Counted from the whole stretch's first letter, positions 39,487 through 48,400 are shown. The stretch is DNA of 63,946 bases, filler included, from Reclinomonas americana ATCC 50394 (GCA_048213135.1; 5 parts of 3 records of this genome joined end to end with filler, not necessarily neighbours in it); one strand, 5' to 3'. Numbers and translations are program-made. Notes: generated by a model from the letters alone, not told the origin.

Positions 39487-42400
39487 ATGTCGGTGCACTC
39501 CTCACTATCGTCATTGACGACCACATGTGCGAGTTTGCAGCGTCAGCTCGACAAGTGGCCACAATCGTGTGATGCTGTGTTGGCACTGCTCACCGAGTCC
39601 ACACGCTCGCTGCTGCTGTCGCATGGTGCGACGCACATACACACGCACACGCACACCATACACCTCGCTCACACTCGCTGGCGTCACAGGCGCACCGAGC
39701 TCGTCGACTCAGCGATTGGCGCGGGAAGCCGGCTTGCCGCGCGCACTGGGGCGCTTCCTCTCTCTGACCAGTGGCGGTGCGACGGATGAGGTGCTTGAGC
39801 AGGCGCAGGGTAATGCCATTCGCGCGCTCAGTTTGCTCTTTGGTGACGGTGCGTGTGCTCCTCACGCACGCACACCACATTTGCGCGCGATTGTTGACGA
39901 CGATGTGTGCATGCAGATGACCCTGCGGCGCTGCAATCGTTTGTCGAGGAGGATGCAGACACAGGCTACATCGTGCTGGACGGCTTGGTCCACGCGCTGC
40001 AGACATCGGCGGTGGCAATCGATGTGGTGCACTTGCTGTCCAACTGGGCCGACGGTATGTGTGTGTGTGTCGTACACAGAAAAAGAGTTGTCGCCGTGGC
40101 CACTCACATGCTTGTGTGTCGAGACAGTTGAGGGCAAGCTGCTGGGCATGTTGGGAGCTCGCAGGGCGGCGACGCCGCTGCTCCGGTTGCTCGTGGAACC
40201 ACGCGATGAGGCGATTGTGTGTCGAGTTGCTCCACTCTTGGCGTTCGTGTGCCCGCCCACGTCAGCATCCGAGGAAGCCAGGCAGGTGGTCGATGCGCTG
40301 GGCCGGCTCATCGATCCCGATAATGGTGCTGGTCTCTCCAAATCGGCGGTGGTGGCCGTGGTGCGAGCCATTCGAGACATGGCTTTCCGTTTCGTGACTT
40401 CGCANNNNNNNNNNNNNNNNNNNNNNNNNNNNNNNNNNNNNNNNNNNNNNNNNNNNNNNNNNNNNNNNNNNNNNNNNNNNNNNNNNNNNNNNNNNNNNNN
40501 NNNNNNNNNNNNNNNNNNNNNNNNNNNNNNNNNNNNNNNNNNNNNNNNNNNNNNNNNNNNNNNNNNNNNNNNNNNNNNNNNNNNNNNNNNNNNNNNNNNN
40601 NNNNNNNNNNNNNNNNNNNNNNNNNNNNNNNNNNNNNNNNNNNNNNNNNNGTGCAATCACGGTATGTAGTTGGGGTGCGCGTGTCGGGTCATAGTGAGCT
40701 GCAGTGTGCTCATGCCACGCATGGTGAACAAACAAACAGCACGGGGTCGCCGCTTCATGGCCGAGTCCAACAGCATCCCTCCCCTGATGAAGATCATGAG
40801 AACGGTGTGCGAACTGCCTGGCAACGCATGCGTCAAACAGTACTGTGCACTGGCGATCGGACGCATGTGCAGCGGTTGTCCGCCTGCACGAAACGCCGTT
40901 CGCGAGGCCGGTGGTGAACAGCTGTTGCAGCAGCTGCAGGATGCACCGGCCGGTGCCCAGGTGGCGGAAGCAGCTGCTGTCGCACTGACACTGCTGCGCG
41001 CGAACACGAACGTGGATGAGAGTGCGACACAAGGTGAGTTGGACGCGCACATTGGGGCGCGCAATGCGCCTAATCCTGGTCGTGCAGCTTCGCAGACGAC
41101 AGTGCCAGCGGCAGGAGGTGCTGCCGCCGCGGCGGCTCCTCCTCCAACGCAAGCGCAGAAAGGCAAATTCGGGTTTGGTGGCGCTAGTTGCGTTGGCCGT
41201 GTTCGCGATATGTGATGCAAGCGCTGTAAGCTGACTTCATGTCGATGATGTTGCTGTGTAGAACCGCTTGGAACAGGTGAGTCTTAGATGGGGAGGAGAA
41301 TATAGGTTTTTGTCTACAATGTTTCTGACTTGGAGTTGTGCATGTCAGTGGCACCCACTGCAGCGGCATCTGTGGCAACAGCAGCGACTCCAGTGCCAGG
41401 AGCTACCGCACCGGCAGCAGCAGGACCTACTGCGGCCAGTCCTCCAGCAGATGCACCGAAACGAACATTCGGCTTTGGTGGCATAAGTTGCGTCATTTGT
41501 GCTCGTGAAAACGCCGTGCTCGGTGCTGACAGTTGCGCGCTGCTATACAGAGGCTGCTGCGCCAGGTGAGTCAGATGTGTGTGTATGCCATCAGTGCCTC
41601 TGTCGCGCAGTGTGTCTGACATGGACTTCAACAGCAACTGTCGCGCCAGCAGCAGCAGTGGCAGCAGCAGCACCTGCGACAGCAGCAGCAACTCCGCCAA
41701 CAAGTGCACCGAAACCAGCTTTCGGGTTCGGTGGAAGTTGCGTTGATTGATGTGTGCAAGTTGTCTGTTGATTTGTGCTGAGTGCATGTTACGGCGTTGT
41801 TGTTGTAGAGCTTGGGATGGCAGGTGAGTCGGACAAATGTGTGACTGTTACAATGCTGTCTTTCTGACTTCGACTCGTGTAGCACCTGTCGCACCAGCAG
41901 CAGCATCAGCACCAGCACCAGTTCCGGAGGCAGGAAGTGCGGCAGCCGCTCCTCCAGCAGCGGCACCGAAGCCAGCTTTCGGATTTGGCGGAAGTTGCGT
42001 TGGTCGATGTGTGCAGATTGTTTTTGTTTTGTGCTGACATGTCTGCGGCGTTGGTGTTGTGCAGAGTTGGGGACGACAGGTGAGTTGGACACGTGTGTGA
42101 CTGTCGCTGTGCTGTGCGTCTGACGAGGACTTGTGTAGCATCTGCGCCGCCCACGGCAGCACCAGCAGTCACACCAGCTCCAGAAGCAGATAGTGCTGCG
42201 GCAGCCGCTCCATCGGCAGCGGCACCGAAGCCAGCTTTTGGGTTTGGTGGAAGTTGCGTTGGTTGATGTGTGCAGGTTGATTTGGTGCACTTGCTGATTG
42301 TATGTCTGTGGGATTGTTGTCGCACAGAGCTCGGGATGGCAGGTGAGTCGAGTGCGTGTGTGTGTGATGGTCTCTTTGCTGTGCGTCTGACTTTGATTTT

Positions 42401-45400: not shown

Positions 45401-48400
45401 TTGTGCTGACATGTCTGCGACGTTGGTGTTGTGCAGAGCTTGGTATGGCAGGTGAGTTGGACATATGTGTGTGACTGTCAGCGTGCTGTGCGTCTGACGA
45501 GGACTTGTGTAGCATCTGCACCGCCCACGGCAGCACCAGCAGTTGCACCAGCTCCGGAAGTAGGTAGTGCTGCCGCTGCCACACCGCCAGCAGCGGCACC
45601 GAAACCGGCATTCGGGTTTGGTGGAAGTTGCGCTGGTTGATATGTGCAGGTTGTTTGTTGCATGTGCTGATTGCGTGCTGGTGGCATTGTTATGCAGAGC
45701 TCGGGATGGCAGGTGAGTGGATGAGTGTTGCATGTGATCTATGTCTGTTCTGTAGTTCTGACTTGGACTTGCACAGCACCAGCAGCCCCAGCAGCACCAG
45801 CTCCGGAAGCAGGAAGTGCGGCTGCGGCCACTCCACCGGCAGCGGCANNNNNNNNNNNNNNNNNNNNNNNNNNNNNNNNNNNNNNNNNNNNNNNNNNNNN
45901 NNNNNNNNNNNNNNNNNNNNNNNNNNNNNNNNNNNNNNNNNNNNNNNNNNNNNNNNNNNNNNNNNNNNNNNNNNNNNNNNNNNNNNNNNNNNNNNNNNNN
46001 NNNNNNNNNNNNNNNNNNNNNNNNNNNNNNNNNNNNNNNNNNNNNNNNNNNNNNNNNNNNNNNNNNNNNNNNNNNNNNNNNNNNNNNNNNNNNNNNNNNN
46101 NNNNNNNNNNNNNNNNNNNNNNNNNNNNNNNNNNNNNNNNNNNNNNNNNNNNNNNNNNNNNNNNNNNNNNNNNNNNNNNNNNNNNNNNNNNNNNNNNNNN
46201 NNNNNNNNNNNNNNNNNNNNNNNNNNNNNNNNNNNNNNNNNNNNNNNNNNNNNNNNNNNNNNNNNNNNNNNNNNNNNNNNNNNNNNNNNNNNNNNNNNNN
46301 NNNNNNNNNNNNNNNNNNNNNNNNNNNNNNNNNNNNNNNNNNNNNNNNNNNNNNNNNNNNNNNNNNNNNNNNNNNNNNNNNNNNNNNNNNNNNNNNNNNN
46401 NNNNNNNNNNNNNNNNNNNNNNNNNNNNNNNNNNNNNNNNNNNNNNNNNNNNNNNNNNNNNNNNNNNNNNNNNNNNNNNNNNNNNNNNNNNNNNNNNNNN
46501 NNNNNNNNNNNNNNNNNNNNNNNNNNNNNNNNNNNNNNNNNNNNNNNNNNNNNNNNNNNNNNNNNNNNNNNNNNNNNNNNNNNNNNNNNNNNNNNNNNNN
46601 NNNNNNNNNNNNNNNNNNNNNNNNNNNNNNNNNNNNNNNNNNNNNNNNNNNNNNNNNNNNNNNNNNNNNNNNNNNNNNNNNNNNNNNNNNNNNNNNNNNN
46701 NNNNNNNNNNNNNNNNNNNNNNNNNNNNNNNNNNNNNNNNNNNNNNNNNNNNNNNNNNNNNNNNNNNNNNNNNNNNNNNNNNNNNNNNNNNNNNNNNNNN
46801 NNNNNNNNNNNNNNNCCGAAGCCAGCTTTTGGGTTTGGTGGAAGTTGCGTTGGTTGATGTCTGCAGGTTGATTGGTGCACGTGCTGATTGTATGTCTGTG
46901 GGATTGTTGTCGCACAGAGCTCGGGATGGCAGGTGAGTCGCGTGTAAAGAGGACTGTCAGTGTGCTGTGAGTCTTACGAGGACTTGTGTAGCATCTGCAC
47001 CACCAGCATCAGCACCTGCACCTGCTTCGGCACCCGAGGCAGGAAGTGCTGCCGCTGCCGCGCCGCCAGCAGCGGCACCAAAGCCAGCTTTCGGGTTTGG
47101 TGGAAGTTGCGTTGGTTGATGTTTGCAAGTCTGATTGGTGCTTGTGTTGATTGTGGTGTTGGTGTTGTGCAGAGCTCGGGATGGCAGGTGAGTCGGACAT
47201 ATTTGTGTTACTGTCACTGTGCTGTGCATCTGACTTGGACATATGTAGCACCTGCGGCTGTTCCAACGCCGGCGGTTGTTACTCCGGAAGCCGTTCCAGC
47301 CCCGGCCGCCCCTGCACCTGGTGATGCTTCGGCAGTCGCACCTCCATTGCGACCGCCACTGATGCGGACAAAGACGTCGGCGGCTGCGTTGCCTGCGGCT
47401 GCTGGCCTCGGTTCGCAAATGCCCGCACCCCCACCTGTGCAGCAGATCGCTCCTCCTCCGTTGGCTCGCGGATCGAGTGGAATGGACGCCTCTCGACTGG
47501 GTACACAACGTAAGTGGTTTCAGTGTCACGTGGTATGCGCACATTTCGCCTTACATGCTGCCGCAGGTGATTTGAGCGCACTGGCTGCTACCTTTCAACG
47601 CAAGCAGTCCGTACCACAATCTGCTGACACTCCTCCACCGGATGCGCCAGCCCAACCACTTGCATCATCGAGCCAGGAGCCAGTTGCGACGCCTCAACCG
47701 TCGTCGCCGCAGTCTGCCGTCGTGCCGCCGGCGGCCCCTTCTGTGAACCGTTCATTCTCCGCGAACAACCCCTTTGGTGCGTGTGTGTGCACGCGAGAAT
47801 CCGTGTGTGCACTCTCCCGAATAACAGCTGTTTGTCAGGGTCCATTGGTGCCGTCCCGCTGATGAAAAAATCACCGCCAAAAGTCGCGCCCGTCAGCTTG
47901 GTGCCAGATGGTACGAGTCTGTAGAGTGTGCGCAAAACCCCTCTTGTTTCTGTGCTCCTGATGCGAAGAGTATCCGGCGCAGATGACACGAGCTCGAACA
48001 CCGATTCTGCGAGCTCGCCGGATTCGCCTTCGTCACAAGAACCAGCGCCGGTCGATACCGCCACTCCAGCGCTGCCGCCAGTGACGACGGTTCCTGCCGT
48101 CGCAACCCCTGCCGCCGTGCCAGCNNNNNNNNNNNNNNNNNNNNNNNNNNNNNNNNNNNNNNNNNNNNNNNNNNNNNNNNNNNNNNNNNNNNNNNNNNNN
48201 NNNNNNNNNNNNNNNNNNNNNNNNNNNNNNNNNNNNNNNNNNNNNNNNNNNNNNNNNNNNNNNNNNNNNNNNNNNNNNNNNNNNNNNNNNNNNNNNNNNN
48301 NNNNNNNNNNNNNNNNNNNNNNNNNNNNNNNNNNNNNNNNNNNNNNNNNNNNNNNNNNNNNNNNNNNNNNNNNNNNNNNNNNNNNNNNNNNNNNNNNNNN

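Follow-up and report, generated by a model that had tools for sequence, protein, structure and literature searches.

A tandem array of exon-intron cassettes, each with a predicted 15-nt micro-exon, in the genome of the protist Reclinomonas americana

Background

How does a gene come to hold some twenty copies of one very small exon, and are such segments exons at all? The question is raised by a tandem array on the plus strand (41088-47248) of a stretch of DNA from Reclinomonas americana ATCC 50394 (GCA_048213135.1). This stretch of 63,946 nucleotides (nt), which we call the window and in which five parts of three records of the genome are joined end to end with filler, is numbered from its first letter. 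An earlier reading of this DNA (the original prediction) described the array as a series of modules, each comprising an exon, an intron, a 15-nt micro-exon and another intron, which build a protein with phenylalanine-glycine (FG) repeats. We followed up this prediction computationally, and we consider that the array is probably the repeat domain of a protein-coding gene in a deep-branching, short-intron protist, whose cassettes were amplified as DNA and whose micro-exon is included as a rule.

Structure of the array

The array comprises at least 20 cassettes, each with a predicted larger exon (exon A), a first intron (intron 1), a micro-exon of 15 nt and a second intron (intron 2). Tandem Repeats Finder reported a repeat at 41706-45847 with a period of 265, 16.0 copies, 71% matches and a score of 2694. 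The 21-nt pattern that joins the micro-exon to the following donor, AGYTNGGNATGGCAGGTGAGT, had 18 matches when up to two mismatches were allowed, all of them on the plus strand and inside 41809-47193, and none in 100 dinucleotide-preserving shuffles (mean 0.00). All 20 micro-exon starts given in the original prediction were correct, each micro-exon being preceded by AG and followed by GTGAGT (19 copies) or GTGTGT (one copy, the micro-exon at 43122). The unit-by-unit table bore out the anatomy of exon, intron, 15-nt exon and intron, and also the proposed number of about 40 introns and the proposed symmetry, since all 39 complete exons are multiples of three and all junctions are in phase 1. As for the bounds, the proposed end at 47248 held, whereas the first exon A starts at 41088 and not at 41100.

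Exon A ranges from 96 to 138 nt and ends in ...CCG AAG CCA GCT TTC GGG TTT GGT GGA A. In the order of the units its 19 complete copies measure 99, 138, 102, 111, 114, 114, 99, 105, 96, 114, 114, 99, 114, 117, 99, 108, 114, 114 and 114 nt, every one a multiple of three. The micro-exons are 15 nt long and symmetrical (phase 1-1) in all 20 copies. Intron 1 (64-75 nt) has the donor GTTGCG in 17 copies and GTTGCA in three, and its 3' end is YAG; intron 2 (57-79 nt; 64 nt in unit 18) has the donor GTGAGT, replaced by GTGTGT in unit 8. A branch-like motif, CT[GA]A[CT] or CTTAC (thus resembling CTGAC or CTGAT), was present 21-38 nt before the 3' end of intron 1 in 19 of the 20 copies, and CTGAC or CTTAC was present 13-30 nt before the 3' end of intron 2 in 18 of 19. 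The predicted spliced unit would read ...GGTGGAA/AGCTNGGNATGGCAG/CATCTGC..., where the slashes mark the junctions.

When units 1-18 were joined at the predicted junctions, they gave 747 codons with no stop, and retention would introduce a stop or a frameshift for 36 of 39 introns (the exceptions being intron 1 of unit 6 and intron 2 of units 2 and 15). Each of the at least 40 short introns would be removed singly by intron definition, using its own donor, CTGAC/CTGAT-like branch motif and YAG, and the 15-nt exon would be included as a rule. Most simply, the introns are passengers of the amplified unit, retained in the gene because nearly all of them would break the frame if left in.

A gene on the opposite strand was also considered, since the minus strand has a stop-free frame of 924 codons at 43076-45847. 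It compares with at least 18 stops in the best frame of mononucleotide shuffles, and the trinucleotides TTA, CTA and TCA occur 24 times on the plus strand, compared with 62.7 in dinucleotide shuffles. However, the shuffles ignore the kinship of the units, so that the depletion of reverse stops is overstated, and the scarcity of stops follows from Ala and Pro codons together with A-poor introns. Moreover, along this frame the units are read in all of the three registers (successive offsets 2, 0, 0, 1, 1, 1, 1, 2, 0, 0, 0), so that no conserved repeat is encoded; the predicted product abounds in Cys, Trp and Arg; and all splice signals and all flanking exons lie on the plus strand. A real gene on the minus strand is therefore hardly credible. 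In the same interval the other minus-strand frames have 9 and 15 stops, and the plus-strand frames 26-31.

The 15-nt segment evolves as coding sequence

The original prediction had the micro-exon encode K-L-G-M-A. We counted parsimony steps on a tree of the 16 complete canonical units, where canonical refers to units 3-20 (18 copies). Over the final 31 nt of exon A, 28 steps fell on third codon positions and 2 on other positions. The micro-exon keeps this periodicity in the register given by removing intron 1, GGA A/AG CTN GGN ATG GCA G: four steps fell on the first position of the Leu codon, six on its third position and four on the third position of the Gly codon, and the remaining ones, one each at two non-synonymous positions, were both in unit 4 (KLGTT). 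Leu is encoded by CTT, CTC and TTG in six canonical copies each, and Gly by GGG in 13, GGT in three and GGC in two. KLGMA is accordingly encoded by 17 of the 18 canonical copies, unit 4 being the only one with amino-acid changes.

Synonymous steps thus made up 14 of the 16 in the micro-exon, against 22% expected by chance (P = 5e-8). At its 10 non-degenerate sites there were 2 steps, whereas the intron interiors changed about ten times faster (2.06 steps per site over 120 columns; Poisson P(<=2) = 2.7e-7). When only distinct variant states were counted, which is robust to gene conversion, 5 of 7 were synonymous (P = 0.008). The mean pairwise difference per site was 0.124 for the micro-exon, 0.217 for exon A, 0.266 for intron 1 and 0.311 for intron 2. 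Units 1 and 2 have diverged (50-66% identity to the others), yet their second exon is still 15 nt long, and they have both donor types and phase 1 in common with the rest. In 17 of the 18 canonical copies only synonymous variation is tolerated, which supports the proposed coding role. Purifying selection on the codons of the micro-exon implies inclusion as the norm, and, judging from the sequence comparison, the segment is very likely translated in most or all mature messenger RNAs.

The pattern also bears on the possibility that the 15-nt segment is untranslated, donor 1 being joined to acceptor 2 so that a composite intron of about 150 nt is removed, perhaps in two steps via the internal CAG/GTGAGT, with the 15-mer acting as a splicing element. 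Such splicing would keep the frame, and the CAG/GTGAGT at the end of the micro-exon has what we take to be the form of a recursive splice site; in addition, a 7-bp complementarity links GCAGGTG to the initial 7 nt of the exon that follows, and it is kept in 15-17 of 17 units. However, the 15-mer varies almost only at sites that are synonymous in the frame of exon A (14 steps versus 2), which is unexpected for a non-coding element, and in 19 of 20 units a branch-like motif and a YAG belong to intron 1 itself. We therefore regard an untranslated 15-mer as unlikely.

The sequence GCAGGTG, which spans the micro-exon end and the donor, pairs with CATCTGC or CACCTGC (for example at 42338-42410), and this pairing could bring the ends of intron 2 together. 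RNAalifold on the units predicted two short helices with no covarying pairs, and the prediction accordingly carries no weight.

It was further proposed that any exon could be skipped in frame, and that this would allow combinatorial tuning of the repeat number and motifs. The first part is correct arithmetically; the tuning is unsupported, as selection on the codons argues that inclusion is the norm. Alternative skipping of micro-exons or whole cassettes would yield isoforms that differ in the number of FGFGG and KLGMA motifs, and several features fit it: all exons are multiples of three in phase 1, so that any skip is in frame; the intron 1 donor, GTTGCG/A, is far from the usual consensus and stands beside the consensus-like GTGAGT; and schistosome micro-exon genes use the identical symmetry for exon skipping (PMC4015677). 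However, the purifying selection seen in 17 of 18 canonical copies means that inclusion must be frequent, and GTTGCG is routine in this genome and no marker of weak or regulated sites (see below). Where introns are short and defined one by one, alternative splicing mostly takes the form of intron retention and not of exon skipping, which also counts against such isoforms, and we consider them unlikely. It is likewise improbable that the approximately 24 symmetrical cassettes form a splicing-level rheostat, in which regulated skipping of micro-exons or whole cassettes decides how many FG stickers, and of which type, a protein carries; if true, this would be a diversification outside animals like that of micro-exon genes, tuning the cohesiveness of a disordered domain.

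GTTGCG donors elsewhere in the window

The intron 1 donor GTTGC(G/A), as originally described, was present in all 20 units; it is not special to the array and is a common type elsewhere in the window. We built by hand a gene model for a calpain-domain protein (36311-38264), which has 13 exons and 12 introns of 57-76 nt and is in frame without a stop. Four of the 12 modelled introns have GTTGCG donors (37027, 37241, 37384 and 37689), and the other donors are GTGAGT, GTGAGG, GTGTGA, GTTGGT, GTGCGC, GTAGCG, GTGGGC and GTTCGT. The exon that ends at 37026, before the GTTGCG donor at 37027, aligns to residues 154-174 of calpain-3 up to the last residue of the exon. Searches of solved structures with the exons right after two of the GTTGCG introns gave chance matches only and no calpain match, so that these two junctions are placed by frame continuity alone.

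The minus-strand kinesin gene has a GTTGCG intron of 75 nt (29727-29801) that contains an in-frame stop, and the similarity to a related protein (P0021) restarts no more than a codon from the acceptor of this intron. The window has 16 further intron-like stretches of the form GTTGC(G/A)...CTRAY...YAG outside the array. Across six genes, GTTGCG occurred 15 times in sense versus 7 in antisense, and GTGAGT 18 versus 11. GTTGCG is thus an ordinary donor class in this genome and no sign of regulated splicing. An intron 1 of U12 type, removed by the minor spliceosome, was ruled out: the U12-type donor consensus is (A/G)TATCCTT, whereas all 20 donors read GTTGC(G/A). GTTGCG carries T at +3 and lacks G at +5, and the donors are loose overall (GTGTGA, GTGGGC, GTAGCG, GTTCGT and others). 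One possibility for the recognition of GTTGCG-type donors is a variant U1.

Coordinates and duplication history of the units

The units all lie on the plus strand, and their predicted parts are given below in the order exon A, intron 1, micro-exon and intron 2. The array is entered in phase 1 from an Armadillo (Arm)-like exon (40740-41033), which is followed by a 54-nt GTGAGT intron (41034-41087). The two diverged units are unit 1 at 41088-41348 (41088-41186, 41187-41261 with GTTGCG, 41262-41276 encoding KPLGT, and 41277-41348 with GTGAGT) and unit 2 at 41349-41634 (41349-41486, 41487-41550, 41551-41565 encoding KAAAP, and 41566-41634). They are followed by unit 3 at 41635-41882 (41635-41736, 41737-41808, 41809-41823 encoding KLGMA, and 41824-41882), unit 4 at 41883-42138 (41883-41993, 41994-42064, 42065-42079 encoding KLGTT, and 42080-42138) and unit 5 at 42139-42403 (42139-42252, 42253-42327, 42328-42342 and 42343-42403).

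Unit 6 spans 42404-42683 (42404-42517, 42518-42589, 42590-42604 and 42605-42683), the end of its intron 2 being assumed. Here the homologous acceptor at 42668-42670 reads TAA, where other units keep TAG, and because of this mutation exon A of unit 7 is taken to start at the next in-frame CAG (42684). The replacement CAG is 15 nt downstream of the lost acceptor and would cut this exon by five codons; the TAA is either a real loss compensated by the downstream CAG or a sequencing error. Unit 7 thus occupies 42684-42941 (42684-42782, 42783-42856, 42857-42871 and 42872-42941). Unit 8 at 42942-43200 (42942-43046, 43047-43121, 43122-43136 and 43137-43200) has GTTGCA and GTGTGT as its two donors, and GTTGCA is also the intron 1 donor of unit 10 at 43441-43698 (43441-43554, 43555-43624, 43625-43639 and 43640-43698) and of unit 14 at 44479-44749 (44479-44595, 44596-44670, 44671-44685 and 44686-44749). 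Between these are unit 9 at 43201-43440 (43201-43296, 43297-43366, 43367-43381 and 43382-43440), unit 11 at 43699-43963 (43699-43812, 43813-43884, 43885-43899 and 43900-43963), unit 12 at 43964-44212 (43964-44062, 44063-44136, 44137-44151 and 44152-44212) and unit 13 at 44213-44478 (44213-44326, 44327-44397, 44398-44412 and 44413-44478).

The run continues with unit 15 at 44750-44993 (44750-44848, 44849-44921, 44922-44936 and 44937-44993), unit 16 at 44994-45253 (44994-45101, 45102-45172, 45173-45187 and 45188-45253), unit 17 at 45254-45512 (45254-45367, 45368-45436, 45437-45451 and 45452-45512) and unit 18 at 45513-45776 (45513-45626, 45627-45697, 45698-45712 and 45713-45776). A partial exon A of a further unit (45777-45847, plus strand) is cut by an assembly gap of 968 N within the array (45848-46815). 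The gap has room for about 3-4 units, in agreement with the 3-4 extra units originally proposed if its size is right, the flanking micro-exons (45698 and 46918) being 1220 nt apart. Beyond it lie unit 19 at 46816-46991 (partial exon A 46816-46843, then 46844-46917, 46918-46932 and 46933-46991) and unit 20 at 46992-47248 (46992-47105, 47106-47172, 47173-47187 and 47188-47248). The copy number is therefore at least 20 and probably about 24. The first non-repeat exon after the array is a Pro/Ala-rich exon of 261 nt (47249-47509, plus strand) with a GTAAGT donor at 47510, and it is open only in the frame dictated by phase-1 entry (no stop, versus one and two stops in the other frames).

Growth by duplication of whole cassettes, as originally proposed, is well supported by the 66-94% identity of units 3-20, which extends over exons and introns alike. 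As exons and introns were repeated together, the duplicated unit was DNA and not a processed exon, and the predicted two-exon, two-intron cassette of about 260 bp was amplified in this form. The best partner was three units away in either direction for 7 of 17 units (pairs 6/9, 11/14, 12/15 and 13/16), and other best pairs were 8/14 (90%) and 4/17 (86%). In alignments of three-unit blocks the best match was units 11-13 versus 14-16 (89.9%), although all offset-3 blocks gave 84-90% and the comparison is weakly discriminating. Unequal crossing-over or replication slippage between cassettes would be the likely route; some of the events would have involved three units at a time, and divergence would have come afterwards. 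Since all exons are multiples of three and all junctions are in phase 1, the gain or loss of a cassette keeps the reading frame. An alignment of the intron 1 and intron 2 consensus sequences scored 25, compared with 14.5 +/- 4.8 in shuffles (15 of 500 shuffles scored as high), which is marginal.

Could the array instead be a decaying or untranscribed repeat, that is, a pseudogene or a satellite derived from a gene fragment, with its exon structure a relic? The acceptor lost at 42668-42670, the differences of up to a third between units, and the failure of protein searches with the adjoining exon or the repeat exon to find a homolog would be in accord with this. Nevertheless, units 1-18 join into 747 codons without a stop, the substitutions follow a strict third-position pattern, the splice signals are invariant while the intron interiors change by about two steps per site, and the array is joined in frame to unique exons on both sides. 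Decay is thus very unlikely.

Several points weigh against the conclusion that the array is a translated repeat domain with its micro-exon included. The step counts may be inflated by gene conversion among the units, and the conservative test gave only P = 0.008. Because skipping of the micro-exon also preserves the frame, frame arguments cannot separate inclusion from skipping, and only the synonymous-substitution pattern does. The one mutated acceptor (42668-42670) could reflect either an error of sequencing or decay at this point. The copy number and order are uncertain, since a 968-N gap interrupts the array in a draft assembly, and all splice junctions of the array are predictions from the sequence. 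The Arm-like exon had neither itself nor an ortholog among its 20 matches and none with E < 1e-10, and the repeat-exon search was empty. Finally, the function suggested for the segment is drawn from its composition alone.

The encoded protein

The product of units 1-18 (747 residues) would consist of 38% Ala, 19% Pro, 12% Gly and 5% Lys, with 38 Lys and Arg residues versus 17 Asp and Glu. It contains 35 FG dipeptides and 17 FGFGG motifs, spaced 37-51 residues apart with one interval of 79 residues. The full product would be a segment of about 1,000 residues, predicted to be disordered, with Ala/Pro-rich and nearly uncharged spacers. A hydrophobic ...PKPAFGFGG-KLGMA... motif every 37-51 residues would correspond to the stickers-and-spacers layout of cohesive FG domains, and through its Phe residues such a layout would make numerous weak contacts, whether to itself or to helical-repeat partners. 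The composition suggests that the array segment may be a multivalent, weakly adhesive disordered linker, which would lie between the upstream Armadillo-like repeats and a downstream Pro-rich tail with NPF motifs.

Searches against longer proteins gave no match for the 44-residue repeat-exon frame or for the Arm-like exon, and a search of the ESM Atlas gave no usable match for the repeat exon. An exhaustive search of representative sequences with the Arm-like exon (97 residues) gave 20 distant matches (E from 8.7e-10 to 7e-4), and five of its six best matches have Pfam Arm repeats. A metagenome scan with the DNA pattern from donor 1 through the micro-exon gave no matches. A protein-based metagenome scan gave one locus (L001), which was rejected as a chance match: it is bacterial, with a LacI-type regulator and a glycoside-hydrolase-like open reading frame (ORF), and has no tandem repeat.

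The array resembles FG nucleoporins of the FxFG type (Nsp1/Nup62-like) in its regular Phe-Gly motifs within a low-charge, predicted-disordered sequence. Its PKPAFGFGG core resembles what we take to be the PAFSFG core of Nsp1 repeats, a string that occurs in papers on Nsp1, and its spacers are, we assume, far richer in Ala and Pro than those of nucleoporins. Unlike the case of nucleoporins, the array has NPF motifs and Armadillo-like repeats as its neighbours. A Pfam scan of frames from the window, which did not take the repeat exons alone and gave only Peptidase_C2 around the array, revealed neither an anchoring domain nor a family of nucleoporins.

Comparison with other arrays of exon-intron units

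The array belongs with genes in which a repeated DNA unit holds both exon and intron and keeps the frame at any copy number, as all 39 complete exons and the 747 joined codons indicate. Like the spider silk genes MaSp2 and Flag and the NBPF Olduvai arrays, it has such units head to tail, with introns that align between units. In Argiope MaSp2.1a and MaSp2.2a and in flagelliform spidroins, the repeated core consists of two exons and two introns, and the introns are of two types in alternation; the small repeats that these units encode have a high content of Ala, Gly and Pro, the introns are 94-99.7% identical within a gene, and unequal crossing-over is the proposed driver (PMC9779670). The authors state there that two homogenised intron types in alternation are known to them from no other gene of a eukaryote (PMC9779670). 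The unit of the present array likewise has two exons and two introns, with GTTGCG-type and GTGAGT-type introns in alternation. In contrast to the silk genes, its introns are not homogenised, the interiors differing at 27-31% of sites (0.266 for intron 1 and 0.311 for intron 2); furthermore, the array has a second exon of only 15 nt, occurs in a unicellular protist and would encode an FG-type low-complexity sequence and not a fibre protein.

The primate Olduvai domains (NBPF/DUF1220) are encoded by a small first exon (mostly 52 nt) and a larger second exon, and these doublets are in tandem and partly form triplets of doublets (PMC9313022). Each unit of the array similarly has a small and a large exon, and for 7 of 17 units the best partner is found at a distance of three units. 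It differs in the size of the small exon (15 nt and not 52), in its introns of 57-79 nt, in encoding a low-complexity sequence and not a folded domain, and in its unrelated lineage.

Schistosoma micro-exon genes (MEGs) have many very small symmetrical exons that can be removed in frame, and skipping produces variants (PMC4015677). The micro-exons of the array are symmetrical too (20/20). However, micro-exons form most of the coding sequence in MEGs, compared with about 12% in the array (15 of about 125 nt per unit, range 111-153); MEG micro-exons are not one 15-mer repeated in tandem with its introns, and MEG products are small and secreted. Alternative splicing has been shown for MEGs, whereas the exon structure of the array is a prediction. 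A keyword search of the open-access literature found no tandem array of cassettes each holding a micro-exon, a search that cannot show that none is in print.

If splicing is confirmed, a single gene would have 20-24 copies of one 15-nt coding exon and at least 40 introns within 6 kb, which would be an extreme use of micro-exons in an organism that seemingly recognises each short intron singly. It would also be a non-animal addition to the few genes with repeated two-exon, two-intron units, such as spider MaSp2 and primate Olduvai. Standard ORF-based or homology-based annotation would probably miss a segment of about 1,000 residues in such genomes. The paralogous units, moreover, constitute a natural experiment on which intron positions are constrained (donor, branch motif and YAG) where GTTGCG is common.

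Flanking genes and other features of the window

The calpain-type protease domain encoded upstream (36311-38264, plus strand; 13 modelled exons) comprises Peptidase_C2 and the start of Calpain_III. Its exon pieces match the Peptidase_C2 profile in order (28-65, 92-123 and 128-148) and then Calpain_III (3-32); E values against PF00648 were 9e-6 and 5e-6, and one piece aligns to the structures of calpain-3, -9 and -1. A possible gene boundary lies at 39420-39489 on the plus strand: an in-frame TAA (39420-39422) closes the calpain-side frame, a T-rich tract ending in TAG follows (39455-39469), and an ATG (39487-39489), 64 nt on from the TAA, opens the Arm-like frame. No donor-acceptor pair that would join the two frames was found. 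This region could be a very short intergenic spacer, the acceptor of an intron in the 5' untranslated region, or a trans-splice acceptor. N gaps at 35858-36023 and 40405-40650 interrupt the gene model as well. The calpain domain is a possible N-terminal part of the array protein, and the genes may be one or two.

Downstream of the array, the open frames at 47760-47790 and 49244-49900 encode a series of NPF motifs (NPFG, NPFA and NPFT) within a stretch rich in Ala, Pro and Ser, and an acidic tail of poly-Asp comes next, near 50250-50338. Motifs of the NPF type are bound by EH domains. At 48526-48668 a (CGTA)n run precedes a perfect (GT)59 microsatellite; the two adjoin a 401-N gap and are apparently intronic.

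No Rfam family was above threshold in the array or the window, and no transfer RNA was found; genes resembling those of small nucleolar RNAs and hosted in introns had been considered and were dropped, as no Rfam family matched. Other genes in the window, identified with Pfam, encode a WDR3/Utp12-like WD40 protein (1286-5142, plus strand), a DEAH-type helicase with Helicase_C, HA2 and OB_NTP_bind (26085-27524, plus strand), the kinesin (28163-32028, minus strand) and a VPS9-domain protein (54006-55259, minus strand). The kinesin is at best 75% identical to other proteins, and 60% identical to its closest named relative, which is from Andalucia godoyi. In character the window is a draft scaffold from a eukaryote; its G+C content is about 58%, it contains 26 runs of N, and its gaps show an oddly regular arrangement in places, with four pairs of 44-N runs, 12 bases apart within each pair (23756-23855, 50339-50438, 56101-56200 and 62359-62458).

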